From a phage: DNA of 64,000 nucleotides. Shown here one piece after another: positions 1-44,169 of this stretch (positions are counted from its first letter, which is position 1; each line of letters begins with the position of its first letter). The notes below the pieces were generated by a model that had not been told where the DNA came from, did not search any database, and was given only the letters and a program-made list of their open reading frames with translations. Position numbers and translations under genes: made by a program. Location: the sequence record OZ335964.1. One strand, 5' to 3'.

Positions 1-2817
<2,817 letters not shown>

Positions 2818-4916: not shown

Positions 4917-5411
4917 ATGGCACTTGATTTAAACGACATTACACGCGGCTTTGAATCAGGCGATTTTGCTCGTCCTAACCTGTTTGAAGTCGAGATCCCT
5001 TATCTGGGTCAAAACTTTAAGCTGATGTGTAAAGCTGCTACCGTTCCGGCTGCTACCGTAGAAAAAATTGCGGTCGGCTTCCAAAACCGTAAAATTAATA
5101 TTGCTGGCGACCGTGTATACGACGACTGGACGATTACGGTATTCAACGACGACGCACACAAGATCCGTGATGCTATTGTCGCGTGGAACGCCCAGACACA
5201 CGGTACTGGTTCTCAGATCACTGGTTCTACTCCTGCACAGTATAAGAAACAAGCGGTAGTTCGTCAACTTAACCGCAACACCGAAGCAACCAGCGAAAAA
5301 ACGCTTTACGGTATTTTCCCGCTTAATGTCGGTGAAGTTACTCTCGATTGGGATCAAAACAACGAAGTTGAAACCTTCGAGGTTACTTTCGCTATCGATT
5401 GGGTAGAATAA
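4917..5411 (+). CDS. 19: Tail tube protein (T4 gp19-like)
   Basis: 164-aa ORF in gp19 position and of gp19 size. Confidence 0.88.
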   Translation: MALDLNDITRGFESGDFARPNLFEVEIPYLGQNFKLMCKAATVPAATVEKIAVGFQNRKINIAGDRVYDDWTITVFNDDAHKIRDAIVAWNAQTHGTGSQITGSTPAQYKKQAVVRQLNRNTEATSEKTLYGIFPLNVGEVTLDWDQNNEVETFEVTFAIDWVE

Positions 5412-5423
5412 ATATATTATCAC

Positions 5424-5441
5424 GCGGGGATTATTCCCCGC
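5424..5441 (+). other. Conserved GC stem-loop GCGGGGATTATTCCCCGC (copy 2, between genes 19 and 20)
   Basis: Identical 18-nt hairpin to the copy at 4880. Confidence 0.6.
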
Positions 5442-5467
5442 TTAATATCTCCCAATCGAGGTGAATA

Positions 5468-7033
5468 ATGTTTAATAGATTAAAGATGCTTGCGCGTTGG
5501 GCGGATTTCGACAACGACAAATACGAAGAACAAATTAAAGCAAAAGCGGAATCTATCGCTGCACCAAATAACAGTGATGGTGCTACTGAAGTAGAAATAA
5601 ACGATAATACCCCCGCTAGTGCATGGAACTCTCTAACACAACAATTTTACAGCACCGACCAGAAGATTAGCAATACTAAACAGCTAATTAACACCTACCG
5701 TGGATTAATGAATAACCATGAAGTAGAAAACGCCGTTCAGAATATTGTTAATGATGCGATTGTATTCGAGGAAGGGCACGATGTTGTATCTCTGAATCTG
5801 GAATCTACCGGATTTAGTGAATCTGTTAAAGAGCGTATTCACGAAGAATTTAAAGATCTCTTAAACACTATCCAGTTTGATAAACGCGGTCAGGATATGT
5901 TCCGGCGCTGGTATGTTGATTCCCGCATTTTCTTCCATAAAATCATCGGAAAGAATCCGAAAGATGGAATTGTGGAATTACGACAACTCGATCCGCGTAA
6001 TCTGGAATATGTTCGCGAGATTATCACAGAAGATACACCGGAAGGTAAAATTTATAAAGCAACGAAAGAATATTTCATTTACACGGTAGGAAGTGGTTCT
6101 TATTGCGCGGGTGGTCAAGTATTCTCTCCGAATAGTCGCGTTAAAATCCCACGTAGCGCCATCACATATGCGCATAGCGGCTTGATGGATTGCGACGATA
6201 AATATATCATTGGTTATTTGCATCGGGCGGTTAAACCTGCTAACCAGCTTAAATTGCTGGAAGATGCTATGGTCGTTTTCCGTATTACCCGCGCACCTGA
6301 ACGTAGGGTATTTTTTATCGATACCGGAAACATGAACAACCGCAAGGCTGCGCAGCACATGAACTCAGTGGCACAGTCTTTTAAAAACCGCGTTGTTTAT
6401 GATGCGTCTACGGGTAAATTGAAGAATCAGCAAGCCAATATTTCTATGACCGAGGATTATTGGTTACAGCGTCGTGATGGTAAGGCTATTACCGATGTAA
6501 CTACATTACCAGGCGCATCCGGTATGAGTGATATCGATGATGTTCGCTACTTTAACCGTAAACTTTATGAAGCGTTGCGCGTGCCACTGTCACGTAGTAA
6601 TCTCTCAGAAGCAAATATGGTTATTGGCGGTGACGGTAATGAAATTACCCGCGATGAGCTAGAATTTTCTAAATTCATTCGTACTCTACAGACTCAATTT
6701 TCGGAAGTCCTGCGCGATCCTCTTAAATACAATCTGATTCTCAAAAAAGTTATCACAGAAGACGATTGGGATCGTGAAATAAATAATATCAAGGTTGTTT
6801 TCCATCGGGACTCTTATTATACAGAAGTTAAAGACGCGGAAATTTTAGAACGTCGAATCAACCTGATCGAACGTATCGCCCCTTACATTGGTAAATATTT
6901 CTCTAACCAGACAGTAATGCGCGATATTCTGAAATATACCGATGACCAGATGGACACCGAGAAGAAACAGATCGAAGAAGAAGCGAACGATCCGCGCTTT
7001 AAACAAACTCCCGATGAAATAGAGGATTTTTAA
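5468..7033 (+). CDS. 20: Portal vertex protein (T4 gp20-like)
   Basis: 521-aa ORF in gp20 position and of gp20 size. Confidence 0.9.
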   Translation: MFNRLKMLARWADFDNDKYEEQIKAKAESIAAPNNSDGATEVEINDNTPASAWNSLTQQFYSTDQKISNTKQLINTYRGLMNNHEVENAVQNIVNDAIVFEEGHDVVSLNLESTGFSESVKERIHEEFKDLLNTIQFDKRGQDMFRRWYVDSRIFFHKIIGKNPKDGIVELRQLDPRNLEYVREIITEDTPEGKIYKATKEYFIYTVGSGSYCAGGQVFSPNSRVKIPRSAITYAHSGLMDCDDKYIIGYLHRAVKPANQLKLLEDAMVVFRITRAPERRVFFIDTGNMNNRKAAQHMNSVAQSFKNRVVYDASTGKLKNQQANISMTEDYWLQRRDGKAITDVTTLPGASGMSDIDDVRYFNRKLYEALRVPLSRSNLSEANMVIGGDGNEITRDELEFSKFIRTLQTQFSEVLRDPLKYNLILKKVITEDDWDREINNIKVVFHRDSYYTEVKDAEILERRINLIERIAPYIGKYFSNQTVMRDILKYTDDQMDTEKKQIEEEANDPRFKQTPDEIEDF

Positions 7034-9261: not shown

Positions 9262-10848
9262 ATGAAAACTACCAAAGAACTGATGGAAAAATGGTCTCCG
9301 CTGCTGGAAAACGAAAAACTGCCGGAGATTGCAACCGCATCTAAACAGAAACTGGTTGCTAAAATTCTGGAATCTCAGGAAGCAGATTTTGCAGTAGATC
9401 CGATTTATAAAGATGAGAAAGTAGTAGAAGCGTTTGGTGGCTTTATCACCGAAGCAGAAGTTGCTGGCGACCACGGTTACGATGCTTCCAAAATTGCCGC
9501 AGGTCAGACTACTGGTGCAATCACCAACGTAGGTCCGGCTGTTATCGGTATGGTTCGCCGTGCTATTCCTAACCTGATCGCATTTGATATTTGTGGCGTT
9601 CAGCCGATGAGCACCCCGACTAGCCAGATCTTCGCAATCCGTTCCGTATATGGTGGCGATCCTCTGAAAGCTGGTGCTAAAGAAGCATTCCATCCGATGT
9701 ATTCCCCGGATGCGTTCCATAGCTCTCTAGCTGCTAAAGGTGCAACCGCTGCTAACCCGGTAGGTACTGCATTCGCTAAACTGACTATGAATACTGCAAT
9801 CAATGAAGGTGATATTGTTCATCACACCTTTGCAGAAACTGGTATTGCATATCTGCAAAACGTAAACGGTCAGGCTGTCACCCCGTCTAAACAGGGTCAG
9901 GAATCTGACGACGAAGCAGTAATGAAACTGATCGAAGAAGGCAAACTGGCTGAAATCGCTTTCGGTATGGCTACTTCCATCGCGGAACTGCAAGAAGGCT
10001 TTAACGGTTCCCAGAATAACCCGTGGAACGAAATGTCAATGCGTATTGACAAACAGGTTGTTGAAGCGAAATCTCGCCAACTGAAAGCCCGTTATTCTAT
10101 CGAAGTTGCGCAGGATCTGCGTGCTGTACACGGTATGGACGCTGACGCCGAATTGAATGCTATCCTGGCTAACGAAGTTCTGCTGGAAATCAACCGTGAA
10201 ATCGTTGACGTAATCAACTTTACCGCTCAGGTTGGTAAGACTGGCATGACTCAGACCGTTGGTTCTAAAGCTGGTGTATTCGATCTGCAAGATCCGATTG
10301 ATACCCGTGGTGCTCGTTGGGCTGGTGAATCCTTCAAATCTCTGATCTACCAGATTGACAAAGAAGCTGCTGAAATCGCTCGTCAGACTGGTCGCGGTGC
10401 TGGTAACTTCATTATCGCTTCCCGTAACGTTGTAAACATTCTGGCTTCTGCTGATCAGGGTATTAGCGTAGCAATGCAGGGCGCTGCTCGTGGTCTGAAT
10501 ACCGACACCACTAAAGCTGTTTTCGCTGGTGTTCTGGCTGGTAAGTATAAAGTATTCATCGACCAGTATGCTCGTCAGGACTACTTCACCGTAGGTTACA
10601 AAGGCGACAACGAAATGGATGCTGGTATCTACTACGCACCGTATGTTGCTCTGACTCCGCTGCGTGCAACTGATCCGCAGTCTTTCCACCCGGTTCTGGG
10701 CTTCAAGACTCGTTACGGTATCGGTATTAACCCGTTTGCTGATAGCAAGTCTCAGTCTCCGAGTGCTCGTATCACTTCCGGTATGTTGAGCAAAGAAAGC
10801 GTAGGTAAAAACGCTTACTTCCGCCGCGTATGGGTGAAAGGTTGCTAA
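9262..10848 (+). CDS. 23: Major capsid protein (gp23-like)
   Basis: 528-aa ORF; TATAAATA late promoter at 9222; strong terminator downstream; paralogous to the gp24-like ORF at 16443. Confidence 0.93.
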   Translation: MKTTKELMEKWSPLLENEKLPEIATASKQKLVAKILESQEADFAVDPIYKDEKVVEAFGGFITEAEVAGDHGYDASKIAAGQTTGAITNVGPAVIGMVRRAIPNLIAFDICGVQPMSTPTSQIFAIRSVYGGDPLKAGAKEAFHPMYSPDAFHSSLAAKGATAANPVGTAFAKLTMNTAINEGDIVHHTFAETGIAYLQNVNGQAVTPSKQGQESDDEAVMKLIEEGKLAEIAFGMATSIAELQEGFNGSQNNPWNEMSMRIDKQVVEAKSRQLKARYSIEVAQDLRAVHGMDADAELNAILANEVLLEINREIVDVINFTAQVGKTGMTQTVGSKAGVFDLQDPIDTRGARWAGESFKSLIYQIDKEAAEIARQTGRGAGNFIIASRNVVNILASADQGISVAMQGAARGLNTDTTKAVFAGVLAGKYKVFIDQYARQDYFTVGYKGDNEMDAGIYYAPYVALTPLRATDPQSFHPVLGFKTRYGIGINPFADSKSQSPSARITSGMLSKESVGKNAYFRRVWVKGC

Positions 10849-10929
10849 TCCACTTTAATTAATCCGGTCGGGTGCAATGCCCGACTTATATGTAAACTTG
10901 ATAGTGTAGTTACTAAAAGTTTTCTTTAA

Positions 10930-10960
10930 GGGAGATCCGAAAGGGTCTCCCTTTTCTTTT
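10930..10960 (+). terminator. Rho-independent terminator after gene 23
   Basis: GGGAGATCC-GAAA-GGGTCTCCC hairpin followed by TTTTCTTTT. Confidence 0.75.
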
Positions 10961-10976: not shown

Positions 10977-10984
10977 TATAAATA
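10977..10984 (+). promoter_or_regulatory. T4-type late promoter TATAAATA (island genes)
   Basis: Exact TATAAATA after the gene 23 terminator, about 40 nt upstream of ORF 11022. Confidence 0.6.
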
Positions 10985-11021: not shown

Positions 11022-11330
11022 ATGCACACACTTATAAAGACCAAAACTCCCGCCGTGTCTGCACCAATTAGCTGCATTCATAGTACCCATATGACGGTAC
11101 AAATGACAGTTGAAAGTGCTGTACAAGGGCAAAAAGTTGTCGCAGAGGCTGTTTTAGAAGGTTCTCTCGATGGCAAAGGTTGGTTCACTATTTCAGAATT
11201 GAAAGCTGATGGTAATGAATATGCAACTGATGGTGGAGCGTTTGAAACATTATGGTCATTTATTCGGGCTAAGGTAAAATCATTATCCAATGGTTCTACC
11301 GTAAATGTGTATCTTGCGAAACGGGGGTAA
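11022..11330 (+). CDS. Hypothetical protein, first gene of the 23/24 island
   Basis: 102-aa ORF with RBS AGGGGA, about 40 nt downstream of a TATAAATA late promoter. Confidence 0.5.
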   Translation: MHTLIKTKTPAVSAPISCIHSTHMTVQMTVESAVQGQKVVAEAVLEGSLDGKGWFTISELKADGNEYATDGGAFETLWSFIRAKVKSLSNGSTVNVYLAKRG

Positions 11331-11333
11331 TGC

Positions 11334-13052
11334 ATGAAGCTAAATCCAGATGCGGTTATTAATGCTGGTTCTGTTGGCGGTGGCACTGGTTCCGGCGGTG
11401 GTGGTATTCAGATCGGAACTAATGTACCATGCGGAATTAAAAATACTCATCGTTTCGAAAATGAAGCTGAACGAGACGCATATTTTACCACTAAATTTGC
11501 GGAATTGGATCGCCTAAAAACAATTATTGTTTGCGGTGGTAAACTTCAATTGTGGACAGGTGCGACCGCCGCATCGCCTTATGATAATACCAAATGGGTC
11601 GATATGACCTGGGTAATTCAAGGCGAACAGGGTACTACTGGTGAAAAAGGCGAGAATGGACGAGGTATTGCCAGAATTGAAGCGCAAATCTCTGATGATG
11701 ATCGCGAATGGAAACTAGAAATTACCTACTCAGATTCTACCACAGAAACATTAACTTTCCCTGTACCTGATGTGTTAGCTAATGTTGCGCAACGTCTTAC
11801 TGCATTAGAGGTAAGATGGACAGCAACTGGTCAGCCAGTTAATAACCTTGATGCGACTGTAGATCAGGGTCGTTATCCGGTTGGAGATAACACATACGGT
11901 AAGCCACCAATGATGGCAAATAAGGGGTCTGCTGATGTATATGTCATTGAGGGTAGCATTATTCAAGTGGTTCGTTCTATTGACGGTGGCGTGTACTCTC
12001 GTATCCGACACAACGGTCATTGGAGCGAGTGGGTCTCACAAAGTGGCGGTGGAAATGGTAGCGGTGGAGGCTTGACGGGTGATCAAGAAGCTATGTTAAC
12101 TAGCTTAGTTAATCGTCTACCGGAAATTTCACCAAATACACGCGATCTTAACACTCTACAGAAGCAAGGTCGTTTCTGTTATGATGAACGTACTACAAAC
12201 CGCCCTAATGGTACTCAGGTACACGGGTCGGTAGATGTTCATGCTTGCAAAGATCATGTATTACAAATCGCAACCAGTCTCGATGGTGTCATGTCACATC
12301 GCGCACTGGACAAAGCAAACGGTACATGGTCTGATTGGTTGCAGATAAGCGATCATACTGGTGGGGCTACGATTTACGCGTTTCCTAGAGTTTCTAGTGT
12401 ATTCACCACTTCGCAAAACTTGATTGAAGTCACAAAACCGGGCGCTGGATTCTTTTATATTCCGTGGAAATATGTTATTCATGATAACTATGGATGCACT
12501 CCACAGATCCAACACCCAGACCGTCAACAAGATGCGGATCATTGGTGGGTATGCCCGAAATCCGGTAGCTATGACATGGAATTATTGCTTGATATGAGTT
12601 TTATCAAGACACAAGCAACTATTCCGGTTCTTGCTGCTGTAACGGCATGGCACAGGAAAGCAGACGGAAGCGAGACAGAAGCCGCACGTTATCAAATCCC
12701 GTTTGATGTTACCCAGAAAAACCAGAAAACAAGATCCGCTAAACTCCGCATTAATAATTTGCCATCCGGCGAGATGATCCGCTGGCAGGTAAAACTCAGT
12801 GGTTATAGCTGGAGCGAAACTGATAACCCAGACGTAGCATTTGCACCCTTCCGCACTATGCTGATGGTCGATGAAGCAGAATACGACACAGCAAAACGAA
12901 TTGGTGCTCTTGCGTTCAATACATGGGCTAACTTCCATGCGAAAAAAGGTTTTGCTGCCGCTGTAAGTGAGGACGAAAATCAGAAAGCACGTCTTAACGC
13001 CGTTAAATGGGGTGCTGTCATTGAATCCGTCCAAGCTCAGTCACAACCATAA
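11334..13052 (+). CDS. Gly-rich protein with short collagen-like G-X-Y run; possible fibre or decoration protein
   Basis: 572-aa ORF; poly-Gly segments (GSVGGGTGSGGGGIQ, SGGGNGSGGG) and GEQGTTGEKGENGRG; RBS GGGGG. Confidence 0.6.
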   Translation: MKLNPDAVINAGSVGGGTGSGGGGIQIGTNVPCGIKNTHRFENEAERDAYFTTKFAELDRLKTIIVCGGKLQLWTGATAASPYDNTKWVDMTWVIQGEQGTTGEKGENGRGIARIEAQISDDDREWKLEITYSDSTTETLTFPVPDVLANVAQRLTALEVRWTATGQPVNNLDATVDQGRYPVGDNTYGKPPMMANKGSADVYVIEGSIIQVVRSIDGGVYSRIRHNGHWSEWVSQSGGGNGSGGGLTGDQEAMLTSLVNRLPEISPNTRDLNTLQKQGRFCYDERTTNRPNGTQVHGSVDVHACKDHVLQIATSLDGVMSHRALDKANGTWSDWLQISDHTGGATIYAFPRVSSVFTTSQNLIEVTKPGAGFFYIPWKYVIHDNYGCTPQIQHPDRQQDADHWWVCPKSGSYDMELLLDMSFIKTQATIPVLAAVTAWHRKADGSETEAARYQIPFDVTQKNQKTRSAKLRINNLPSGEMIRWQVKLSGYSWSETDNPDVAFAPFRTMLMVDEAEYDTAKRIGALAFNTWANFHAKKGFAAAVSEDENQKARLNAVKWGAVIESVQAQSQP

Positions 13053-13330
13053 TGGGGGTGTATAGGGTTATAGCTGGAGCGAAACTGATAACCCAGACGT
13101 AGCATTTGCACCCTTCCGCACTATGCTGATGGTCGATGAAGCAGAATACGACACAGCAAAACGAATTGGTGCTCTTGCGTTCAATACATGGGCTAACTTC
13201 CATGCGAAAAAAGGTTTTGCTGCCGCTGTAAGTGAGGACGAAAATCAGAAAGCACGTCTTAACGCCGTTAAATGGGGTGCTGTCATTGAATCCGTCCAAG
13301 CTCAGTCACAACCATAATGGGGGTGTATAG
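12801..13330. repeat. Perfect tandem duplication, 2 x 265 bp (12801-13065 and 13066-13330)
   Basis: Second unit repeats the last 84 codons, stop codon and 13-nt 3' flank of the 572-aa gene; identical translations appear twice in the ORF track on both strands. Confidence 0.85.
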
Positions 13331-14253
13331 TGGAACATACAGGAAAAAGGTTGCTAGATCTTAGAAATGGTTTTAATCAGGGTGAAATCACAGAAATCAC
13401 TGGTATGCCAGCTAGTGCTCTCATGGAGGCAGACGTAAGCCGCATATCTAATCAAATCAACACCGAACTAATTGATCCGGTGATTGATTTTGTTATTGCT
13501 TGCGATGAAGTTATCGCAAATGCAGCCGAGGATGCTTTAAACAAAGCCGATAGCGCCGAGAGTATGGCAGAAGTCGCAGACCGAACGGCAGGTCAATCTA
13601 TGAGCAAGGCAACCGATGCTCTAGACAAAGCGACGACCGCAGAATCGGAAGCAGGGCGAGCGCATGATCGCTTAGACAAGTTGAACATTCCACAAATCCC
13701 GAACTTAGACGGGCACACATGGAATTGGCTACCACGTTCTTTCGATAGCGTGTCTATTCAGTTGGGAAGCGGTATCACATTAGTTGATCCAGTGAACGGC
13801 AAGCCTCACATTACATGGACACCAATTAGACAGAACTACGAGACAGGAAGATATTACATCGAGGGTCGTTTTGAAGCCAGATTTAAAGTAATGTTAATGG
13901 ACTGGATTCAACAATCATCCGGTGGTCATATTTTCTATCTAGGTGGTGGTCAAAGTCTGGCATCATTTAACGGACGCGTGTCACTGGTGAATATCTCGAA
14001 TGATATAATGAAGCCGACTAATATACAAGTCAACGCATACACCGCCAAAGATACTCAAGTTATTTTCGGTGCGTGTGCTGATGCGGCAATTTCAACATCA
14101 AGGGAAGTTAAACTAGCTTTCATGGTTGATACTGGAACAGATAAATTTGACCGATATAATGATCCTGTATATGTTGATTTGGTAATGACATTCCAACGCG
14201 ACGGGGAAGGAAATTTCGGATTCGGAAATCTTTTCCCAAGCCTAAATCCTTGA
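13330..14253 (+). CDS. Fibrous protein with N-terminal domain shared with the next ORF; GTG start
   Basis: 307-aa ORF; N-terminus (ALMEADVSRISNQINTELIDPVIDFVIACD) is paralogous to the 621-aa ORF; Ala/Asp-rich helical segment then a globular C-terminal part. Confidence 0.6.
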   Translation: MEHTGKRLLDLRNGFNQGEITEITGMPASALMEADVSRISNQINTELIDPVIDFVIACDEVIANAAEDALNKADSAESMAEVADRTAGQSMSKATDALDKATTAESEAGRAHDRLDKLNIPQIPNLDGHTWNWLPRSFDSVSIQLGSGITLVDPVNGKPHITWTPIRQNYETGRYYIEGRFEARFKVMLMDWIQQSSGGHIFYLGGGQSLASFNGRVSLVNISNDIMKPTNIQVNAYTAKDTQVIFGACADAAISTSREVKLAFMVDTGTDKFDRYNDPVYVDLVMTFQRDGEGNFGFGNLFPSLNP

Positions 14254-14311
14254 TCCTATTTGTCGGGGAGAAATCCCCGACAACGTTTTCTAATATCAAC
14301 GAGGATATGAT

Positions 14312-16177
14312 ATGTTAAGAAACCGTGCAATCAAGTCAACCCCTAATTTCATTCAAGGGGATATGGGAAATATTACCTCAAGAGATAATCATGCATTAAT
14401 GGAGCATGATATTCCAACAATCTCTGACACAATTAACAGGGATCTAATTACACCAGTAATTGATTTTATCAACGAATGCGATAATATTCTACTCGATGGA
14501 ATAGGGACGGTCGCAGATACTGTTGATATTATCGAACGGAAAGCTGATAATGCAACCGAAATTTCTAATTACGCCAGTGAAAAAGCTATCGAGGCATTGG
14601 CAAAATCAAAAGAAAGTTTGACGAAAGCGGAAGAAGCAAACACGGTAGCAAATAGTGTTGCTGGTGATGCGCAAACAGCATTAACTAAAGCTAATGAGGC
14701 TAAAACGCTAACAGACAGTCTTAAAACAAAAGTTGATGGTTATGACACCAGAATCACAGAAATTGATTCTAAGGCAACTACAGCGAAATCTGACGCGTCT
14801 TTAGCAAAAGATAAGGCTGATGCACTGGAAACAACGGTCAATAGCGAGAAAACTAAACTGACAGCATTGACTACTAAGGTCGATACTCTAGAAGGTGATA
14901 TTATCAATGCTGTGGATCTGGCTGAACAAGCAAAGAATAAAGCAGATTCAGTAGAAACACAAGCCATTAATAACACCACAGAGATTACCGCTTTAAAAGG
15001 CCGTGTATCAACTGTAGAGACACAATCAGCAGAAGCCAATAGACTGGCTACCCAAGCCGATAAAAATGCGTCTACGGCGCTCTCAGACGTTTCTACGTTA
15101 TCTTCAAAGGTTGATGATGTTAAGGCTACAGCCGACGCAGCAAGCGCAAGCGTGGCGGGATTAACTCAGGATATCGGAGAAGTGCGGACACTGACAGAAA
15201 CAGCCACGACAAACATCACAACTCTTTCCGGTAAAGTTGATACCATAAAGACAACCGCAGATACAAACAAGACCAATATTGAAGCATTAACCACTCAGGT
15301 TAATGAACACACAACTAAGATCGGAGAGTTGGAAACTGGTGTATCTAACGTTAATGGTGAACTTACCACGGTCAAAGGATCGCTAACCACGGTTCAGGAA
15401 ACCGCAGCTAATGCACTTCAAAAGGCCACCAGCGCAGAAACAAAGGCAGGTAATGTAGAGACACTAATTAATAGTCTTACACCGCGTGTGGACGCGTTAG
15501 AAGGCGATTTAGGTACATTAGAGAGCACTGTTGCTGATTTATCTCCTAAAGTGACAGCAGCAACCGAAAAAGCGACTATGGCATTCAACAAAGCAACTGC
15601 CTTAGAGCAAAAAACGGAATCGATGGAAACAGAAATCGAAGATGTTCGCCTCGATGCTGGGACCGCGATGGCAGAAGCGACACAAGCTAATAGTGAGATC
15701 GCCACGTTAAAAACTAAAGTCGGTGAACTGGAAAGCGATGTTGACACAGCCGATACAATCGCAAATGAAGCATTAGCAGTTGCACAAAGGGCGGATACTA
15801 ATGCAAATACAGCCAATACAAATCTTGCAACGATAACACCAATCGTGGAAAGATTGAATGGTGCATTTGTCGGTATGATTCGAATCAGATACAAGGAAAC
15901 TCGAACTATAACGAAAGCTGGCGGTAACACTCGTCGTAAGTTGATAATCCCACAAGTTCGAAAAGGTGATATGGCATTTGCGGCATTTTTAAACGTACCA
16001 GATAAACGAGATAGTATTCTGTTTAACTGTATGATTCCTGTCGACGGCGAAGTTCACATGGCAATAAAAAATCTGCATACCGCCGCATTAGATTTTAACG
16101 ATTGGGTTCAAATATTGGTATTCCAGACAAGTACGGGTAATCCTATTGTTGACCCAGAAACAAGCCTAACAAACTAA
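14312..16177 (+). CDS. Long coiled-coil fibre-like protein with distinct C-terminal domain
   Basis: 621-aa ORF; about 450 aa of low-complexity T/A/E/K-rich helical sequence; N-terminus (ALMEHDIPTISDTINRDLITPVIDFINECD) paralogous to the 307-aa ORF. Confidence 0.65.
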   Translation: MLRNRAIKSTPNFIQGDMGNITSRDNHALMEHDIPTISDTINRDLITPVIDFINECDNILLDGIGTVADTVDIIERKADNATEISNYASEKAIEALAKSKESLTKAEEANTVANSVAGDAQTALTKANEAKTLTDSLKTKVDGYDTRITEIDSKATTAKSDASLAKDKADALETTVNSEKTKLTALTTKVDTLEGDIINAVDLAEQAKNKADSVETQAINNTTEITALKGRVSTVETQSAEANRLATQADKNASTALSDVSTLSSKVDDVKATADAASASVAGLTQDIGEVRTLTETATTNITTLSGKVDTIKTTADTNKTNIEALTTQVNEHTTKIGELETGVSNVNGELTTVKGSLTTVQETAANALQKATSAETKAGNVETLINSLTPRVDALEGDLGTLESTVADLSPKVTAATEKATMAFNKATALEQKTESMETEIEDVRLDAGTAMAEATQANSEIATLKTKVGELESDVDTADTIANEALAVAQRADTNANTANTNLATITPIVERLNGAFVGMIRIRYKETRTITKAGGNTRRKLIIPQVRKGDMAFAAFLNVPDKRDSILFNCMIPVDGEVHMAIKNLHTAALDFNDWVQILVFQTSTGNPIVDPETSLTN

Positions 16178-16206
16178 TTAATTTCATCAACTATAGGGGA
16201 ATTAAC

Positions 16207-16359
16207 ATGAGCAAGAAAAAAGATAGCTATGTTCAAATTACCAAGAAACAGTATGATGAATTAATGTTAGCGGTGGCCTATGCCATAATGCGATCTGATT
16301 TGGCGATCCAGCAAATCGAAAAGACAAATAAAAGTCTTGAGAATGTAGCAGCAAATTAA
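16207..16359 (+). CDS. Small hypothetical protein (50 aa), below the ORF-track size cutoff
   Basis: ATG with RBS AGGGGA; ends just before the terminator at 16366. Confidence 0.3.
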   Translation: MSKKKDSYVQITKKQYDELMLAVAYAIMRSDLAIQQIEKTNKSLENVAAN

Positions 16360-16365: not shown

Positions 16366-16397
16366 GGGGAATCCTTAACGGGATTCCCCTTTCTTTT
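16366..16397 (+). terminator. Rho-independent terminator closing the 23/24 island
   Basis: GGGGAATCC-TTAAC-GGGATTCCCC hairpin followed by TTTCTTTT. Confidence 0.7.
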
Positions 16398-16442: not shown

Positions 16443-17684
16443 ATGGCACAGATTTTCAATGAACTGTTAAAGGAATCGACTTCCTCAGTAGCAAACCAGA
16501 CAGCAAGACCACAATTATTGGCACTTACCCGCGCGGTTAACAACCTGATTTTCTCCGATCTGGTGGCAATTCAGCCAACAAATCAGCCTATTTGTGCATT
16601 ATTCGGACTTCGTTATGTTAACCGTGATGGTCAAATGACTTATCGTACCGCAGGAACGTATGGTGGTGCGGCTGGTAATCGTGATGTTTTTGAAGATTTT
16701 CAGAAAGATAAAGAATATCAGGTCGGTGATCATTTCAAATTTGATAATGTTGTATATGAAGTGATTACAGAAGGTGCAGTAGGACAGGATATTTCTACCG
16801 AAGAAGAAGCGATCTTTAAGGGAGTAGTGTCAAATAAAATTCGTTTCTTTAGTGATTATGCACCTACTGAATATTTCGAAGATGCAAACACTGAAATTTC
16901 TACTACCGATTTTGATTTTGAAAAATGGCAAGTTAATGTCGGATCTCGTAAACTGAAAACAGAATTTACGACCGAATTGATGCAAGATCTGGAAGCAAAC
17001 CAGATGAACTCTGAAAATACCGTTTTGGATCTTCTTGCTACCGTTGCATCCGAAGAAATCAATAAAGATATTATCCAGAAACTGATTACGGTATCAACTC
17101 GTTATAAAGTTAAGAGCATTACACCTGATGGCGTTCTTTCACTGGTTAACGTTCAGGACGCACCAGCACAAGCGCGTGAACTTTATCGCTATGCATGTGA
17201 AATGAGTAATCAAATGCTTCGCACTTCGTCTTTCGGTGGTACTTATGTTCTTGCATCTTCTCGTGTTGTTGGCCTCCTGCAAGCTAGTGGCTGGATGGAA
17301 GAAACTGACAATGCACTAAGTGAAGGTCGTTTACGTTGTGGTTTAGAAGTTTATGCGGACACTGTAACCCCGTTTGATTATATGATCGTTGGTTGTAAGC
17401 ATATGGTCGGTGATATGGAGAGCGTAGGTTCTCTGTTTTACTCCCCATATACAGAATCAGACGGAGCGGGTGCATATAAGAGCATCATCGATCCTAATAG
17501 CTTCAACCATAAAGTAGCGATTATGAATAGATATGCGCTTTCTGTCAACCCATACACAACCAAAGCTGATCAAGAAAACAACCAAGTAATCAAGGGTGAC
17601 GAGTGGGGCAAACTTGCCGGACGTTCAGAAATGTCCTACATGCTGGGTATCGAACTACCACCTCTTGAGATTGACAACGCTTAA
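16443..17684 (+). CDS. 24: Capsid vertex protein (gp24-like)
   Basis: 413-aa ORF, paralog of gp23 as in T4; TATAAATA at 16397. Confidence 0.9.
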   Translation: MAQIFNELLKESTSSVANQTARPQLLALTRAVNNLIFSDLVAIQPTNQPICALFGLRYVNRDGQMTYRTAGTYGGAAGNRDVFEDFQKDKEYQVGDHFKFDNVVYEVITEGAVGQDISTEEEAIFKGVVSNKIRFFSDYAPTEYFEDANTEISTTDFDFEKWQVNVGSRKLKTEFTTELMQDLEANQMNSENTVLDLLATVASEEINKDIIQKLITVSTRYKVKSITPDGVLSLVNVQDAPAQARELYRYACEMSNQMLRTSSFGGTYVLASSRVVGLLQASGWMEETDNALSEGRLRCGLEVYADTVTPFDYMIVGCKHMVGDMESVGSLFYSPYTESDGAGAYKSIIDPNSFNHKVAIMNRYALSVNPYTTKADQENNQVIKGDEWGKLAGRSEMSYMLGIELPPLEIDNA

Positions 17685-37886: not shown

Positions 37887-37921
37887 TTGATACTCCTTAG
37901 TAGTTCGTTTCGGTATGTGTG

Positions 37922-37950
37922 CATTATAGGGGATCGATGATCCCCTGTCA
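37922..37950 (-). promoter_or_regulatory. Early sigma70-like promoter cassette (TTGACA-N17-TATAAT) with palindromic spacer
   Basis: Minus strand: AAAAAGTTGTTGACA GGGGATCATCGATCCCC TATAAT, then conserved leader ACCGAAACGAAC and RBS before ORF 37886. Confidence 0.6.
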
Positions 37951-37958
37951 ACAACTTT

Positions 37959-38477
37959 TTAGTTATTTTTTAATTGCTCATCTTGCAATAAAGCAATCAC
38001 ATGCTGGCGATGTTCTTCCGACTGAGGCACACCGAAAAAGTTTGTTTTGTAGAAATACTCTAATCGGTCTTCTCGTGTGCTCTCTTCCATCATGATCGCG
38101 GGTAGTCCGAGATTTCGGAAACGTCGCTTTTCTGCTGGCGTAAAATCGCTGTAATACAGCATAGAATCATCATTACCAGCAATGCTAAACTCATCCTTCA
38201 TGAAAGAGAATATTGCGTTTAAACGCTGTTTACCGTCCACGATTTCGATCTCATAGCGAGAGCCATCATCAATCTTAGCCATTGCGATAGCACCAACCGG
38301 AAAATCATTAATCAGGTTTTCGATAAACATACGTTTGTTTTCTGTGTCCCATACTAAAGGACGCTGATAATCTGGGTTCATGTTGATAAAGCCATCTTCT
38401 AGCCATGCTTCATAGACAGATATGACAAAGTTTTTAGTATTGGTATAGTAACGGCGTTTAGGCGTTAAACGGTTCAT
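37959..38477 (-). CDS. DUF262 / ParB-like domain protein
   Basis: Motifs PDYQRPLVW and IVDGKQRLNAI match the DUF262 (GmrSD N-terminal) signature; start set at MNRLT with RBS AGGAGA. Confidence 0.5.
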   Translation of the reverse strand: MNRLTPKRRYYTNTKNFVISVYEAWLEDGFINMNPDYQRPLVWDTENKRMFIENLINDFPVGAIAMAKIDDGSRYEIEIVDGKQRLNAIFSFMKDEFSIAGNDDSMLYYSDFTPAEKRRFRNLGLPAIMMEESTREDRLEYFYKTNFFGVPQSEEHRQHVIALLQDEQLKNN

Positions 38478-38478
38478 G

Positions 38479-38811
38479 TTATAGTCTCCTGAATGGATCA
38501 TCACGTAAATCAATATCTTTTAAGAACTCATCCCATGAATGGCGGATATTGTTCTTAATTCTCCAGATAAGCGCAGGGATTGAACGCTCTCCCATCTGGA
38601 AGTAAGGATCATATGATCCGTATGCCCAATATGCTACTACAATTCCACAATCAGCGCAATAGTATTCTATTTCACTTGCTGGCGACCAAAGTCCATCAAT
38701 ATGATCGGTGATCTTGCTTTCGATGTTATGGCTATGGCAATCAGGGCAACGGATGCAATGACCTTGTTTATCGTAATTTGACGTTAGCGAATACTTAAAC
38801 AATCTCATCAT
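38479..38811 (-). CDS. Zinc-ribbon protein
   Basis: CIRCPDC...C..C..YYCADC cysteine pairs; translationally coupled between the MTase-like and DUF262-like genes. Confidence 0.45.
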   Translation of the reverse strand: MMRLFKYSLTSNYDKQGHCIRCPDCHSHNIESKITDHIDGLWSPASEIEYYCADCGIVVAYWAYGSYDPYFQMGERSIPALIWRIKNNIRHSWDEFLKDIDLRDDPFRRL

Positions 38812-39572
38812 AGATCCTTATTGGCTTCAAATACTGCCTTTGCGAATCCTCGCGGGGTAAGTGACCTGATAGTCTTTGTTCTGGTTCCTTTCCCGCCTAG
38901 CTTAGAATGCTGTTTACTGTACCCTTTCTCAATCGGCAACGGTTTCTTTTCTGGCATTATAAAGCCTTGTCCGGTCCATAAGCAAGTCTTTTTCGGGTAC
39001 ATATCACGGGCGGCAATATACTCAGGAAACGTAGGATGTATATCATCTTCCGGCAAATAACCGCCATATTCCCACGGGTGGAACATGTAATCAGGCTTAC
39101 GCCACATGCTAGAGATAACGCTTACAGGATTCTCTATCATGTAGGGAACTCCTAGCCATTCACCCAAATAAGCTGTTATTTTAGCTGCCCGTACATCATG
39201 AACTTGAATTAATGGTCCTTGCTCTCGTTTCTTTCGTTCAAAGTGTGCAGCGCCACTAACAGCTAAATTTGAACAGCTAGGAAACGCAAAGATCATATCC
39301 GGTTTGCCCCATTCAAGATCCATCGCCCTTTCCAACCAATCCAGATCTATCCATGAATTAACATAAGTTAAATTTGGGTGTTCAAATCGAGTGTTATACT
39401 TTTTATATGTTCCATGATCGGCATCATCAGCATTAAAGCAGATCACTTTATGACCTGCTTTAGCCCATTCTAGACCCATAATACCGGACCCATCGAATGT
39501 ACAAAATATAAGTTTACTTTCCGTGGTTTTCATGATAGCCATACTCTCTTTCTGCTTTGGTTCTAACTGCAA
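38808..39572 (-). CDS. SAM-dependent methyltransferase-like protein, possibly DNA cytosine-C5 type
   Basis: Motifs FDGSGIMG (motif I-like), FPSCSNLAVSG (PC-like), MIENP (ENV-like); true start probably an internal Met because of overlap with the upstream HNH gene. Confidence 0.4.
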   Translation of the reverse strand: MQLEPKQKESMAIMKTTESKLIFCTFDGSGIMGLEWAKAGHKVICFNADDADHGTYKKYNTRFEHPNLTYVNSWIDLDWLERAMDLEWGKPDMIFAFPSCSNLAVSGAAHFERKKREQGPLIQVHDVRAAKITAYLGEWLGVPYMIENPVSVISSMWRKPDYMFHPWEYGGYLPEDDIHPTFPEYIAARDMYPKKTCLWTGQGFIMPEKKPLPIEKGYSKQHSKLGGKGTRTKTIRSLTPRGFAKAVFEANKDL

Positions 39573-40050
39573 CGGCTTCTTCTAGTGTGTCGAAACACCC
39601 TAGATATTTTCTATCACCGCGTCGACCGCCGCCAATTCTAACTACCCATTTATTGTATTTGTTTTTATGTATTCCACTATGTCCGCTTGTATTCTTTTTA
39701 GACTTTGTTTGATTTCTCATGTTGTCGCGGTGTAGTTTAAGTTCAAAGTTAACCGCTCTATTATCTGTCTTAATGTGATTAATATGATCTACTTCATATC
39801 CTTCTGGTATAGGTCCATTGTGGATAATATAACATACTCGATGAACTTTGTAGTTAATAATTTTACCGTCAATTTTTATTGACGATTCAAGATAACGTCC
39901 ACCACTTCCTAGTGACCCGACCTCCTTTCCAGCCCATGCAGCATTCCATTGTTTTATTCTTGATGGGTGTATATCTGTTCTCTCCTTCCATGTAAGGATA
40001 CCAGTGTCAGGATCATAATTAAAGTATTTCTTCCAGTCTATATTGTTCAC
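39514..40050 (-). CDS. HNH homing endonuclease with AP2 DNA-binding domain
   Basis: HNH core (YEVDHINHIKTDNRAVN) and AP2-like region (KWVVRIGGGRRGDRKYLGCFDTLEEAVAVR). Confidence 0.75.
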   Translation of the reverse strand: MNNIDWKKYFNYDPDTGILTWKERTDIHPSRIKQWNAAWAGKEVGSLGSGGRYLESSIKIDGKIINYKVHRVCYIIHNGPIPEGYEVDHINHIKTDNRAVNFELKLHRDNMRNQTKSKKNTSGHSGIHKNKYNKWVVRIGGGRRGDRKYLGCFDTLEEAVAVRTKAEREYGYHENHGK

Positions 40051-40298
40051 GCTGCCCCCATTGGTTTGATAGTAACAGAATCTAAAAGACCTTTGTTAGC
40101 CAGTTCGCGGCAAGTTTTCAGATCCGTAACTTCCCAGCCAGCCGCAATCAGGTTATCAATCAGGCTGTTAGCAACTTCTTCGCTCATGAAAGAGCACTGT
40201 TTGCCGATGGTGTAGCGTACACGCTGTAATTTCAGTTTACGGAAGCCTTTAACGTTCAGGTCTTTAGCGATTTTCTTTGCGGTTTCGATGTTAGCCAT
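40047..40298 (-). CDS. Hypothetical protein
   Basis: 83-aa ORF directly downstream of an early promoter cassette. Confidence 0.5.
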   Translation of the reverse strand: MANIETAKKIAKDLNVKGFRKLKLQRVRYTIGKQCSFMSEEVANSLIDNLIAAGWEVTDLKTCRELANKGLLDSVTIKPMGAA

Positions 40299-40338
40299 TG
40301 TTTGATTCTCCTAAGTGGTATCTCGTCTTGATGTTTGT

Positions 40339-40368
40339 ATTGTAGGGGATCTCCCGATCCCCTGTCAA
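40339..40368 (-). promoter_or_regulatory. Early promoter cassette (TTGACA-N18-TACAAT), palindromic spacer
   Basis: Spacer GGGGATCGGGAGATCCC; conserved leader and RBS AGGAGA before ORF 40298. Confidence 0.55.
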
Positions 40369-40381
40369 CAACTTTTTTAGA

Positions 40382-40855
40382 TTATTTGCACCAAATTCGA
40401 ATTATTTCGTCTCGTTCAAATTTCTGCCAGATTACTCGGTCACCCGCTGCCATGATACTGACAAATCCAGTTGTGTTTCCTGTGTACTTGCTTTTAGTCT
40501 CGGCATCATATTCAAAGAATGGTGCTTTAAGATCGCTAAACTCATCTTTTCCCACAAACTTCATAACATGACGATGCGCGTAATATTCGCTTCTTAGTGT
40601 TGTTGTGATAGTTCCGTCATTATTTGATTTCAGATGTAATTCTGCATCTTCATAAAGACTTGCATCTCGTTGTTTACTTTCAATACCGTCGTTATATGTT
40701 GATTTCGTTGCACTCCAACATTGATAAGTTTTATCAACATTTTCGATCTTTTCCTGTGTCATATCAAAAAGCGGTGCAACCTTTTTCTTAGCCGCGTGTG
40801 CTACGTTGGTCATGGACAGTGCTGCAACAACCACAATAGCAATAATCTTCTTCAT
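40382..40855 (-). CDS. Secreted/periplasmic protein
   Basis: N-terminal signal peptide (MKKIIAIVVVAALSMTNVAHA); RBS AAGGAGA. Confidence 0.55.
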   Translation of the reverse strand: MKKIIAIVVVAALSMTNVAHAAKKKVAPLFDMTQEKIENVDKTYQCWSATKSTYNDGIESKQRDASLYEDAELHLKSNNDGTITTTLRSEYYAHRHVMKFVGKDEFSDLKAPFFEYDAETKSKYTGNTTGFVSIMAAGDRVIWQKFERDEIIRIWCK

Positions 40856-40919
40856 AGTATTCTCCTTTTGTTTTGTGTTGGGAGTATCTTAGCGACACTC
40901 CCGTTATTTTTCAAATCTT

Positions 40920-41201
40920 TTATTCGTGATTAGTTTCGATGTTATACATTTTGCACCAGTTCAGCCAATCGCCCAGATCTTGATAGTTGATGCTTTTATC
41001 TGCTGCCATCGTTTTGGTCTTGATACCCATATGTGCGTTATGAGTAAGCATTTTTACAGTGAACTCAATTTTATCGCCTTTAGCTTTAACATCAACCAGT
41101 TTGGTCCACTGGCTACCAGCGCCGCGAATGTTCATACCAACGATGTTTCCGATGTATGCTTCTTTGTTTTTCAGGATTTCGGTTGCTTTGATGAATTTCA
41201 T
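40920..41201 (-). CDS. Hypothetical protein
   Basis: 93-aa ORF behind an early promoter cassette. Confidence 0.5.
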   Translation of the reverse strand: MKFIKATEILKNKEAYIGNIVGMNIRGAGSQWTKLVDVKAKGDKIEFTVKMLTHNAHMGIKTKTMAADKSINYQDLGDWLNWCKMYNIETNHE

Positions 41202-41234
41202 TTTTGATTCTCCAGTTCGTTTCGGTATGGGTGT

Positions 41235-41263
41235 ATTATGCTATGTTCTTACTTTGGTGTCAA
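41235..41263 (-). promoter_or_regulatory. Early promoter cassette (TTGACA-N17-CATAAT)
   Basis: Upstream AAAAAGTTG UP-like tract, conserved leader CCGAAACGAAC, RBS GGAGAA before ORF 41201. Confidence 0.55.
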
Positions 41264-41270
41264 CAACTTT

Positions 41271-41540
41271 TTAGATATTTTCAGAAATAAATTTTAAAAC
41301 TTGACGTAAATGTTTCTCATCTTTGATAGTCGCCGGAAGTTCTTCTTTTACTTCCTGTGCAAGATAGATATTTCCGTTCCAAGTGAAAGATCCGTCTTCG
41401 TTTACGCGATAGCTGAACATCCACTCGCAATCATTTTCGATTTCATATACACACAGAAGGGTGTAATCGTTAAAGCTATTGATTTCAAGGTCGAAGCCGT
41501 GACGTTTTGCAAAGTTGGTAGTGGTTTTAGTCAGTGCCAT
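41271..41540 (-). CDS. Hypothetical protein
   Basis: 89-aa ORF behind an early promoter cassette. Confidence 0.5.
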   Translation of the reverse strand: MALTKTTTNFAKRHGFDLEINSFNDYTLLCVYEIENDCEWMFSYRVNEDGSFTWNGNIYLAQEVKEELPATIKDEKHLRQVLKFISENI

Positions 41541-41580
41541 TGTTTGATTCTCCTAAGTGGTATCTCGTTTCGATGGGTGT

Positions 41581-41609
41581 ATTATGCTATACACAGGATC
41601 TGGTGTCAA
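41581..41609 (-). promoter_or_regulatory. Early promoter cassette (TTGACA-N17-CATAAT)
   Basis: Conserved leader CATCGAAACGAGATAC and RBS AGGAGA before ORF 41540; sits just downstream of a terminator. Confidence 0.55.
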
Positions 41610-41634
41610 TGCCTTTTTTAAAAATTTTGGCAAT

Positions 41635-41658
41635 AAAAAAGCCGACACTAAGGTCGGC
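41635..41658 (-). terminator. Terminator after ORF 41667, immediately followed by a promoter cassette
   Basis: Minus strand GCCGAC-CTTAGT-GTCGGC followed by TTTTTT. Confidence 0.6.
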
Positions 41659-41666
41659 TAATAAAA

Positions 41667-41975
41667 TCAACGAGATAGATAATCGTTTTGCGCGATCTGG
41701 TCGGCGTATGCTGGTGTTATGTCAATCGCCAACACTTTAACGCGTGCTTTCTTGCGACCTGGGTTTTCTCGTAACCAGTGCTCATGACCGTGCACATTTT
41801 TATATTTTGATGCGGTTTCGAAGGTACGGATCGGACCTGGATAATCTGCGTAAAGGATCTCTAGGTCTTCGGTGATGTAAAAATATACATCATAATTACT
41901 GTTCTCTAGTTTAAGCAGAGAATTGCGAAATTGTGGTAAATTCTCGCGGGTAAATTCAACTACAAGATTTTTCAT
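41667..41975 (-). CDS. HxHW-motif small protein, family member 1
   Basis: YDVYFYITED...HGHEHW...VKVLAIDI; start set at MKNLVVEF (RBS GAGGA after the terminator). Confidence 0.5.
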   Translation of the reverse strand: MKNLVVEFTRENLPQFRNSLLKLENSNYDVYFYITEDLEILYADYPGPIRTFETASKYKNVHGHEHWLRENPGRKKARVKVLAIDITPAYADQIAQNDYLSR

Positions 41976-42000
41976 AGTGATATCCTCATTCAGATAGATT

Positions 42001-42019
42001 AAAAGGGGCTTAATGCCCC
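42001..42019 (-). terminator. Terminator after ORF 42025
   Basis: Minus strand GGGGC-ATTAA-GCCCC followed by TTTT. Confidence 0.55.
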
Positions 42020-42024
42020 CTATA

Positions 42025-42312
42025 TTAAAACAGTCCTTCCTGTACACCGTAGTAGAGTTCATCGCTGATAATTTCATTAATGCGACGGTGTGCATATTCC
42101 TGATTTGCGAAGTTGTCAGCAAGTTCTACTTTAGTTTCGCCGTCATGAGTCCATTTAGTGATAACTTTACCATCTGCAAATTTGAAGTTGAACTCTTTAG
42201 CTACCGCATCGCGTACCAGACATGCAAACTTGTTGTTGCGGATTGCATTATCGGTTTCGTGTGCAGCGTGAGCAAATTTGTTAACTTTCAGAGTGATAGT
42301 AATGTATGCCAT
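42025..42312 (-). CDS. Hypothetical protein
   Basis: 95-aa ORF behind an early promoter cassette. Confidence 0.5.
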   Translation of the reverse strand: MAYITITLKVNKFAHAAHETDNAIRNNKFACLVRDAVAKEFNFKFADGKVITKWTHDGETKVELADNFANQEYAHRRINEIISDELYYGVQEGLF

Positions 42313-42358
42313 AATTTGATTCTCCTAGTTAGAAAGTGTATCTCGTTTCGATGGGTGT

Positions 42359-42387
42359 ATTATGCTATACACCCGATCCGGTGTCAA
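42359..42387 (-). promoter_or_regulatory. Early promoter cassette (TTGACA-N17-CATAAT), palindromic ACACCGGATCGGGTGT
   Basis: Conserved leader CATCGAAACGAGATAC and RBS AGGAGA before ORF 42312. Confidence 0.55.
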
Positions 42388-42394
42388 CAACTTT

Positions 42395-42673
42395 TTATAA
42401 AATAATTTTTTGATATTTTTCTATGATGTTCGTGTAATTCACATCAACCGCTATCACCGTTGCTTCGAATCCACCGTTTAGCCAATGGCTATGGTCATGA
42501 TCGTGAAAGAAACCAAGACCAGTGCGAAGACCTTCTTTATATTCGGCGCGTACATTTAGAGAATCGTCGATAAACAGATAAAACCATGAATTTTTACTAG
42601 GATTGATGATACAACCTTTCAGATTAGGGAGAATATCACGACTAAGAATAAACTTATCACCTACTTTGAACAT
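42395..42673 (-). CDS. HxHW-motif small protein, family member 2
   Basis: WFYLFIDD...HDHDHSHW...TVIAVDV; start set at MFKV (RBS GAGGA). Confidence 0.5.
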   Translation of the reverse strand: MFKVGDKFILSRDILPNLKGCIINPSKNSWFYLFIDDSLNVRAEYKEGLRTGLGFFHDHDHSHWLNGGFEATVIAVDVNYTNIIEKYQKIIL

Positions 42674-42677
42674 AATA

Positions 42678-42998
42678 TTAGTCCTCACTTATAAGGTCAA
42701 ACCAATTGTTTTTCGCATAATGCTTAATGCGTGCTTGATCTGCTTCCGCTGGTGATAGATTCCATGCAACCACTACAACTTCTGACGCATCGTCATCCGT
42801 TTCTGATACCCAATGATTGTGATTCATACAGTTATTTGCGATCGAGTGAGCAAATGATTTCATCACTGGAGACGTATAATCATAGTAACGGATTTTCAGA
42901 TTTTCATCAACGTACAAATAGATCGTATAAGGTTTATATTCAGTAACCAGTAACAGACAGTTACGCAATTCTGGGAAAATATTTTTAGTTAATTTCAT
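42678..42998 (-). CDS. HxHW-motif small protein, family member 3
   Basis: YTIYLYVDEN...NHNHW...EVVVVAW. Confidence 0.5.
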   Translation of the reverse strand: MKLTKNIFPELRNCLLLVTEYKPYTIYLYVDENLKIRYYDYTSPVMKSFAHSIANNCMNHNHWVSETDDDASEVVVVAWNLSPAEADQARIKHYAKNNWFDLISED

Positions 42999-43200
42999 AT
43001 TCTAGTTCTCCGTAATATACGGTAATCCATTTTTCTTCATACTTTGTATCTTTCCAACACACAATCCCGTTTACTGTGCAATCTTTGGAATTGACGAATG
43101 ATTCATATTGTTCTGCATCTTCCATCATTGCATGAGCGGTCTTTTCATCGAATATATCGCAGATCGCTTTATATGCTCGATAATCTTTAAATTTGCTCAT
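42985..43200 (-). CDS. Small protein, paralog of the next ORF
   Basis: MSKFKDYRAYKAI...MMEDAEQ...GIVCWKDT; start set at MSKF. Confidence 0.45.
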   Translation of the reverse strand: MSKFKDYRAYKAICDIFDEKTAHAMMEDAEQYESFVNSKDCTVNGIVCWKDTKYEEKWITVYYGELEYEIN

Positions 43201-43202
43201 AA

Positions 43203-43412
43203 TTAAGACCACTCAAGAGTTTTTGAAAACACATCTATCCATTGTTGAGTATATGCGGTTTCTTTCCATGATACAATACCAGTCGAATAATGGTTTTTGT
43301 TTCCAGAAAAGGACGGGCATTTTGATGCATCTTCCATCATCTTTTCGGCGAACTCCGCGTCATATACCCGCAGGATCTGTTGATATGCTTTATAATCTTT
43401 AAATTTGCTCAT
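43203..43412 (-). CDS. Small protein, paralog of the previous ORF
   Basis: MSKFKDYKAYQQI...MMEDASK...GIVSWKET. Confidence 0.45.
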   Translation of the reverse strand: MSKFKDYKAYQQILRVYDAEFAEKMMEDASKCPSFSGNKNHYSTGIVSWKETAYTQQWIDVFSKTLEWS

Positions 43413-43677
43413 AATTGTTAACTACCTTATCAGCTTCTTTTATTGTTTTTACATCAACTGCGATAATCCGTAAAGGTTCGTCGAAGGTCCACCAATGATC
43501 GTGAATATCGGCTTGTGATTTATCACCAAAGGAATCACGAATATCATTTTTACATTTATAGCTAATGTGACCTTCATAGTCAACATAAAGGTAATTATCG
43601 AAAATCGGCGTTTTTAAGATCATACCGAAAAATCTTTCTTTGTGTGTCTTATCCAGTGTTGCAGTAATTCGCATCAT
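43399..43677 (-). CDS. HxHW-motif small protein, family member 4
   Basis: DNYLYVDYEG...IHDHWW...LRIIAVDV. Confidence 0.5.
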   Translation of the reverse strand: MMRITATLDKTHKERFFGMILKTPIFDNYLYVDYEGHISYKCKNDIRDSFGDKSQADIHDHWWTFDEPLRIIAVDVKTIKEADKVVNNYEQI

Positions 43678-43689
43678 AATATATTCCTC

Positions 43690-43869
43690 TTAGAAAGGGA
43701 TGGTCATTTCTTGAGCTTGTACATTCTCGTTAGGATTAAACTTCATCCAACCGATATTGTCTACCAGCATATGTACATTTTTATCATATCCTACGTGAGT
43801 AGTCAACACTAAATGTGCTTTACCTTCAACGATGATTTCCATGTACTTCTGAACTTCGATAGCTTTCAT
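43690..43869 (-). CDS. Small hypothetical protein (59 aa), below track cutoff
   Basis: ATG immediately downstream of an early promoter cassette and its RBS GGAGAA. Confidence 0.4.
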   Translation of the reverse strand: MKAIEVQKYMEIIVEGKAHLVLTTHVGYDKNVHMLVDNIGWMKFNPNENVQAQEMTIPF

Positions 43870-43902
43870 TTTTGATTCTCCGTTTGTTGTCTTGATGGGA
43901 GT

Positions 43903-43931
43903 ATCTTACTACTCCCTTTAATCATTGTCAA
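43903..43931 (-). promoter_or_regulatory. Early promoter cassette (TTGACA-N17-TAAGAT) with GGGAGTA/TACTCCC palindrome
   Basis: Conserved leader and RBS before small ORF 43869. Confidence 0.5.
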
Positions 43932-43934
43932 CTA

Positions 43935-44102: not shown

Positions 44103-44135
44103 TTTTATTCTCCTATATCTCGTTGGTATGTGTGC

Positions 44136-44164: not shown

Positions 44165-44169
44165 CAACT

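Follow-up and report, generated by a model that had tools for sequence, protein, structure and literature searches.

Origin of a perfect duplication in a phage late operon

Does the 265-nt sequence that stands twice between two late genes of a phage genome (sequence record OZ335964.1) belong to that phage, or was it left behind when the record was assembled and finished? The stretch of DNA analysed, hereafter referred to as the window, comprises 64,000 nt and was assigned to a Krischvirus (RB49-like T-even phage, Straboviridae). The duplication lies between a gene encoding a 572-aa protein and a gene encoding a 307-aa protein, and its junction, its content, its distribution among relatives and the start point of the record together make a finishing artefact its probable origin.

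Extent and boundaries of the repeat

Two units on the plus strand, 12801..13065 and 13066..13330, were delimited by TRF (period 265, score 1060; 265 nt x 2.0 copies, 100% identity). Direct string comparison and a separate repeat search returned the same two identical units, which bears out the identity claimed in the first-pass annotation. There are exactly two copies, directly adjacent and in head-to-tail orientation. A k-mer scan of the 64-kb window revealed no other perfect direct repeat exceeding 35 nt, and chance is therefore excluded. The match cannot be extended in register at either end: T12800, preceding unit 1, stands against G13065, the last base of the unit, and T13331, following unit 2, stands against the G with which the unit begins. 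Since the flanking bases differ on both sides, the unit boundaries are unambiguous and the junction microhomology is 0 nt.

The only sequence that single-copy genomes would not have is the novel junction GGGTGTATAG/GGTTATAGCTGG (13065/13066; 13056..13077, plus strand). The 31-mer centred on this point reads ...GGGGGTGTATAG/GGTTATAGCTGGAGC..., and GGGTGTATAGGGTTATAGCTGG is an example of a k-mer that spans it.

Two pairs of short matches were considered as candidate microhomologies and rejected: (i) an AGTGG pair (12798 and 13329), which is 1 nt off register and predicts a 266-nt period and the junction TATAGTGGTTATAG, neither of which was seen, and (ii) a TATAG pair (12804 and 13061), which predicts a 257-nt period and another junction, and is coincidental.

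Content of the repeated unit

Codon 490 of the 572-aa ORF marks, in phase 0, the start of unit 1, which is composed of 83 sense codons (490-572), the TAA stop codon (13050-13052), a 12-nt spacer (TGGGGGTGTATA) and a single G; the last base of unit 2, its exact copy, is the G of the GTG start codon of the 307-aa gene. It had been proposed that the unit copies the last 84 codons and ends at the GTG start of the next gene. The C-terminus and the stop codon are indeed included, but the number 84 is reached only if the stop is counted, and the unit does end at that start codon but takes in its first base (G13330) instead of finishing just before it. The further proposal that GGGGGTG, and with it the ribosome-binding site of the next gene, lies inside the unit was correct. 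This Shine-Dalgarno-like motif is present on the plus strand at 13319-13325, where it would serve the GTG at 13330 and where a G-run is conserved in relatives, and at 13054-13060, where, as read from the sequence, the orphan copy has no start codon at a usable distance.

Unit 2 is non-coding as placed, since it lies downstream of the stop codon of the 572-aa gene. It contains a 64-codon remnant ORF (13123..13317, plus strand) in frame with the copied C-terminus, which is probably not translated, its ATG having no Shine-Dalgarno sequence. A late promoter, a terminator and members of known RNA families were sought in the unit and none was found, and its predicted RNA fold is not unusual (z = -0.8). 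The unit holds no whole gene, and in the AlphaFold model of the 572-aa protein its start falls midway through a predicted beta-sandwich domain and does not coincide with a domain boundary. With no whole gene, promoter, known RNA family or special fold present, nothing suggests selection for the unit. Reading frames and promoters are unaffected by the second copy, and the stop-to-start distance alone changes, from 12 to 277 nt.

Genomic setting

The genes gp23 (major capsid, 9262-10848) and gp24 (vertex, 16443-17684) enclose the region of the duplication. The motif TATAAATA of T4-type late promoters was found on the plus strand at 9222, 10977 (10977..10984) and 16397, and terminator-like hairpins at 10928-10953, 14260-14283 (plus strand, following the 307-aa gene) and 16366-16389. 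The late operon thus delimited consists of the promoter at 10977, a 102-aa gene, the 572-aa gene (11334..13052, plus strand), the 307-aa gene (GTG start, 13330..14253, plus strand) and a hairpin, with the duplication between the latter two genes, both of which are intact.

Elsewhere in the window (37901-53264), families of 58-76-nt repeats occur between genes; on the minus strand they comprise GTTGACA, 17 nt (often the palindrome GGGGATC..GATCCCC) and TATAAT. Judged by these motifs, they look like a T4-type early sigma-70 promoter family with a hairpin-forming spacer.

The region between gp23 and gp24 (11022-16359), encoding proteins of 102, 572, 307, 621 and 50 aa, is an insert present in few Krischvirus genomes only, and the description of the 572-aa gene as an island gene was thus confirmed. 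Megablast matched the island in four phage records only, and no match was obtained in Escherichia coli genomes or plasmids. A protein search yielded about 20 homologue clusters, mostly from Logan and ENA contigs, and the 307-aa family co-occurs with the island. The exact 572-aa, 307-aa, 621-aa and gp23 proteins had no record in Logan, ENA and NCBI look-ups. The 621-aa protein is almost wholly coiled coil, and its gene is missing from some relatives, e.g. phage Brandy and locus L005. The island proteins may be accessory head or tail fibres.

Predicted products of the flanking genes

Searches of Pfam, PHROG and PDB sequences assigned no function to the 572-aa and 307-aa proteins, the former having no Pfam or PDB sequence match at all. 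The AlphaFold model of the 572-aa protein has a mean pLDDT of 63.8, with most blocks in residues 110-530 at 70-90. A fold search with this model, the only informative one of the searches for function, matched the baseplate receptor-binding chains of phi812 (E = 1e-9) and the R1 pyocin fibre (E = 1e-7), together with many jelly rolls of the TNF/C1q type and a short-tail-fibre domain from a cyanophage; glycine runs and a collagen-like GxY stretch are seen in the consensus of its family. By these models and matches the protein resembles phage fibre or receptor-binding proteins, and "fibre" is a reasonable guess for its gene.

Within this gene, TRF detected an imperfect 21-nt tandem repeat (11365-11404; 1.9 copies, 78% matches), encoding a glycine-rich run near the N-terminus and likewise present in Shigella phage JK32. 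The homologue of the gene is split in Brandy (L002 5001-5753 and 5747-6730; range 5001-6730) and in locus L007 (3001-4714; 467 aa and 92 aa). Frameshifts, errors in sequencing or the decay of an accessory gene could account for the split.

For the 307-aa protein, the model (pLDDT 74.9) shows a long helix spanning residues 30-117 and, after it, a C-terminal beta-sandwich, and the fold search gave no significant structural match. The label of fibre gene that had been attached to this downstream gene is therefore not established, the fibre-like protein being that encoded upstream.

Copy number and colinearity in related phages

Seven relatives were compared: Shigella phage JK32 (MK962753), Brandy, one IMG/VR contig and four Logan/ENA contigs. 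When the unit was searched by blastn and every retrieved locus was run through TRF, each of the seven proved to carry a single unit; the stop-to-start gap is 12-24 nt, with a G-run conserved at the Shine-Dalgarno position. In JK32 the two genes are separated by 12 nt, and its single copy (L001 7468-7732), internal to the genome (103.2-103.4 kb of 176 kb), is identical to unit 1. Once one unit is removed, the locus is colinear with JK32 over both genes, with 12 substitutions in 2655 nt (99.5% identity), none of them within the unit, and no indel. The 44-mer across the junction 13065/13066 had no match in viral, metagenome and genome collections, and the native 32-mer spanning stop, Shine-Dalgarno motif and GTG had none in viral, metagenome or genome contigs. 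A literature search for duplication in Krischvirus or JK32 returned nothing relevant.

A mosaic or recombination boundary at the duplication was considered as well. Megablast homology to Brandy, SSG23 and SFHK24 ends near the end of the 572-aa gene, which had suggested a module junction. This was rejected, as the site lies in the middle of a 12.6-kb tract (~7.2-19.8 kb) that is 97-100% identical to JK32, and the 307-aa gene is conserved downstream, being kept in Brandy, SSG23 and SFHK24 at 57-79% protein identity.

Similarity of the window to JK32 is otherwise sharply mosaic. Overall identity across the first 25 kb is 92.8%, and the 97-100% tract gives way to 52-77% identity at ~19.8-22.2 kb, where JK32 has its Hoc-type head decoration genes. 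Within the high-identity tract, indels of more than 1 nt are limited to the 265-nt repeat and a 21-nt in-frame difference in length (15289-15588) inside the 621-aa gene, whose product has 614 aa in JK32.

These comparisons bear on the proposal that the repeat is a recombination-prone site whose expansion and contraction would regulate the downstream gene. Such a copy-number switch would tune translation of the 307-aa protein or give rise to a C-terminal piece of the 572-aa protein; in a related form, the second unit would be a real, maintained and recombination-labile 265-nt spacer that uncouples two fibre-like virion-surface genes, acting as a reversible, population-level switch of the 572-aa/307-aa ratio. 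The ribosome-binding site of the 307-aa gene does lie inside the repeat, so that copy number would shift its distance to the upstream stop codon and hence the coupling, and the products of the neighbouring genes resemble virion-surface or fibre-type proteins, among which variation can be adaptive. Copy number is nevertheless invariant, at one, in all seven relatives, JK32 at 99.5% identity included. The unit offers no promoter, known RNA element, complete gene or special RNA structure, its remnant ORF lacks a Shine-Dalgarno sequence, it begins inside a predicted domain, and the 265 nt directly upstream of the GTG are unaltered by the duplication. With the 12-24 nt gap maintained throughout and the junction found in no other assembly, we regard the copy-number switch as very improbable, and the maintained spacer as equally so. 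The comparison with related phages that the first-pass annotation had called for thus speaks against expansion and contraction and fits an artefact.

Record start and genome ends

The first base of the window is the A of the ATG of the terL ORF (938 aa; 1..2817, plus strand), and its counterpart in the alignment with JK32 is the base at which the terL CDS starts (90076). In JK32 the terS CDS ends 3 nt inside terL, overlapping the terL ATG, so that opening a record of this type at that position cuts terS. A circularly permuted phage that packages by headful has no genome end at the terL ATG. The coincidence of window base 1 with this codon therefore shows that the record was re-oriented (rotated) after assembly.

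The terL ORF has a further peculiarity. In Pfam, LAGLIDADG_3 covers residues 365-422, and not until residue 496 does the N-terminal domain of T4-type terminases begin, an arrangement which suggests that the ORF carries an in-frame intein with a homing endonuclease. Positions 493-1791 have no alignment to JK32, whose terL annotation comprises two CDSs and a different insertion.

The genome organisation also bears on whether the two copies could mark the physical ends of the genome, as direct terminal repeats, or form a packaging or replication signal. Some phage genomes, as is generally known, end in direct repeats of a few hundred bases. Here, the copies are adjacent to each other, inside a late operon and overlapping coding sequence, and the one copy in JK32 occupies the corresponding internal site. 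Krischvirus and T-even phages, moreover, package by headful with circular permutation (PMC9391042; PMC8785237). This explanation has, in our judgement, next to no probability.

An assembly leftover or a recent duplication

We consider it likely that the 265-nt duplication is a finishing artefact of assembly followed by re-orientation. A circularly permuted T-even genome assembles as a circle, and a linear contig running slightly over one lap of that circle would carry the same 265 nt at both ends. Were such a contig rotated to a chosen gene without trimming, its ends would be fused internally, giving two perfect copies in tandem that are joined at an arbitrary point, without homology. The original, untrimmed contig ends would then have met at 13065/13066, and the real phage would carry one unit and the 12-nt stop-to-start junction seen in JK32.

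This origin is favoured because (i) the repeat is perfect, exists in exactly two copies and is confined to this record; (ii) the locus minus one unit is colinear with JK32, all seven relatives are single-copy and the junction 44-mer is absent elsewhere; (iii) microhomology is lacking at the junction, unlike in genuine T4 events, which show 2-10 bp; (iv) the record starts at the terL ATG, i.e., it was rotated; and (v) the unit contains neither a whole gene nor a promoter. Regarding the third point, 0 nt is the likeliest outcome for an arbitrary contig end (probability 9/16), which fits an artefact but is not exclusive to it.

Three observations count against an artefact. The common de Bruijn assemblers leave an end overlap equal to the k-mer size, e.g., 55-127 in SPAdes and 141 in MEGAHIT; 265 nt is not a usual overlap of this kind, so that an artefact implies an overlap-layout, long-read or commercial assembler. 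Secondly, both genes remain intact because the unit spans their boundary, a position that selection would allow; for genes of this size, by our own estimate, about 15-40% of random 265-nt units would leave both intact by chance. Thirdly, T-even phages are subject to tandem duplication.

The second of these observations also favours a genuine duplication, which would be very recent, unstable, and neutral or mildly harmful, having been fixed in the sequenced clone by a plaque-purification bottleneck. It would have arisen by illegitimate, homology-independent joining or by template switching during the recombination-dependent replication of T-even phages, and would be lost quickly through homologous recombination between the 265-nt copies. 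T-even phages recombine at a very high rate, as Anderson and Roth (1977, cited in PMC9391042) are reported to have found. The perfect identity of the copies is consistent with a very young event, the immediate signals of both flanking genes are preserved, and T4 readily generates tandem segmental amplifications (PMC9391042).

A duplication of this kind would also have a plausible phenotype. The conserved 12-24 nt gap with its G-rich, Shine-Dalgarno-like run fits translational coupling of the two genes, which would be broken by a stop-to-GTG distance of 277 nt instead of 12. Partition-function calculations gave a mean unpaired probability from the Shine-Dalgarno motif to the start codon of 0.63 with the upstream RNA kept open, as a terminating ribosome would do. 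The corresponding values were 0.24 for naked mRNA with one copy and 0.17 for the duplicated arrangement with unit 2 untranslated. Spacing and predicted RNA accessibility thus suggest that the 572-aa and 307-aa genes are coupled, and that the duplication, if real, would abolish coupling and lower the yield of the 307-aa protein, a mildly negative effect.

Against a genuine event stands the junction. In T4, segmental amplifications and deletions verified by experiment are flanked by homologies of 2-10 bp, typically 6-10, one copy of which stays at the junction (PMC9391042), compared with 0 nt here; the AGTGG pair, 1 nt off register, predicts a junction that was not observed. As the unit lacks a complete gene, amplifying it offers no obvious selective advantage; the duplication is seen in no other assembly, and at T-even recombination rates a perfect 265-nt repeat should segregate within a few growth cycles, which makes a clean two-copy consensus unexpected. 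We therefore hold a genuine recent duplication to be possible but rather unlikely. Thus, of the three explanations put forward in the first-pass annotation, the artefact is favoured, a very recent event keeps some probability, and the evidence speaks against regulation by expansion and contraction.

If the duplication is an artefact, the practical effects are slight though real: the deposited genome is 265 bp too long, its 277-nt intergenic gap and remnant ORF are spurious, and the record needs correction. If it is real, it represents a fresh case of the tandem duplications that T-even phages constantly generate, unusual only in having no junction microhomology, and would lend itself well, as a natural experiment, to testing whether two late genes are translationally coupled. 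Until it is checked against reads, its biological interest is low. A rule for genome scans follows: where a tandem repeat consists of two perfect copies, the record begins exactly at terL, dnaA or repA, and near-identical relatives lack the repeat, an assembly leftover should be presumed until reads show otherwise.

Comparison with known systems

Three known systems may be set beside this locus. The first is the untrimmed contig-end overlap of a circular or circularly permuted assembly, moved inside the record by re-orientation, in which a contig is "extended to more than 100% of the genome"; it shares with the present case the perfect identity, the two copies, the homology-free junction, the absence from relatives and the rotated record, and differs in the overlap length, 265 nt being no standard k-mer size. 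Translationally coupled gene pairs of phage late operons, in which the stop codon precedes the next start by a few nucleotides, resemble the native arrangement in JK32 and the other relatives, with its 12-24 nt stop-to-start gap and G-rich, Shine-Dalgarno-like run; by spacing and predicted RNA accessibility these genes may be coupled too. The amplifications described in T4, namely those of dmd-tifA, the Hp17 amplification of genes 16-18 and the rII rearrangements (PMC9391042 and references therein), share the head-to-tail tandem arrangement and the highly recombining T-even-type genome. They involve, however, 2-10 bp of microhomology and whole genes under selection, often in many copies and with compensating deletions, in contrast to the duplication described here, which has 0 nt of microhomology and consists of two copies of a 3' gene fragment with a 12-nt spacer.
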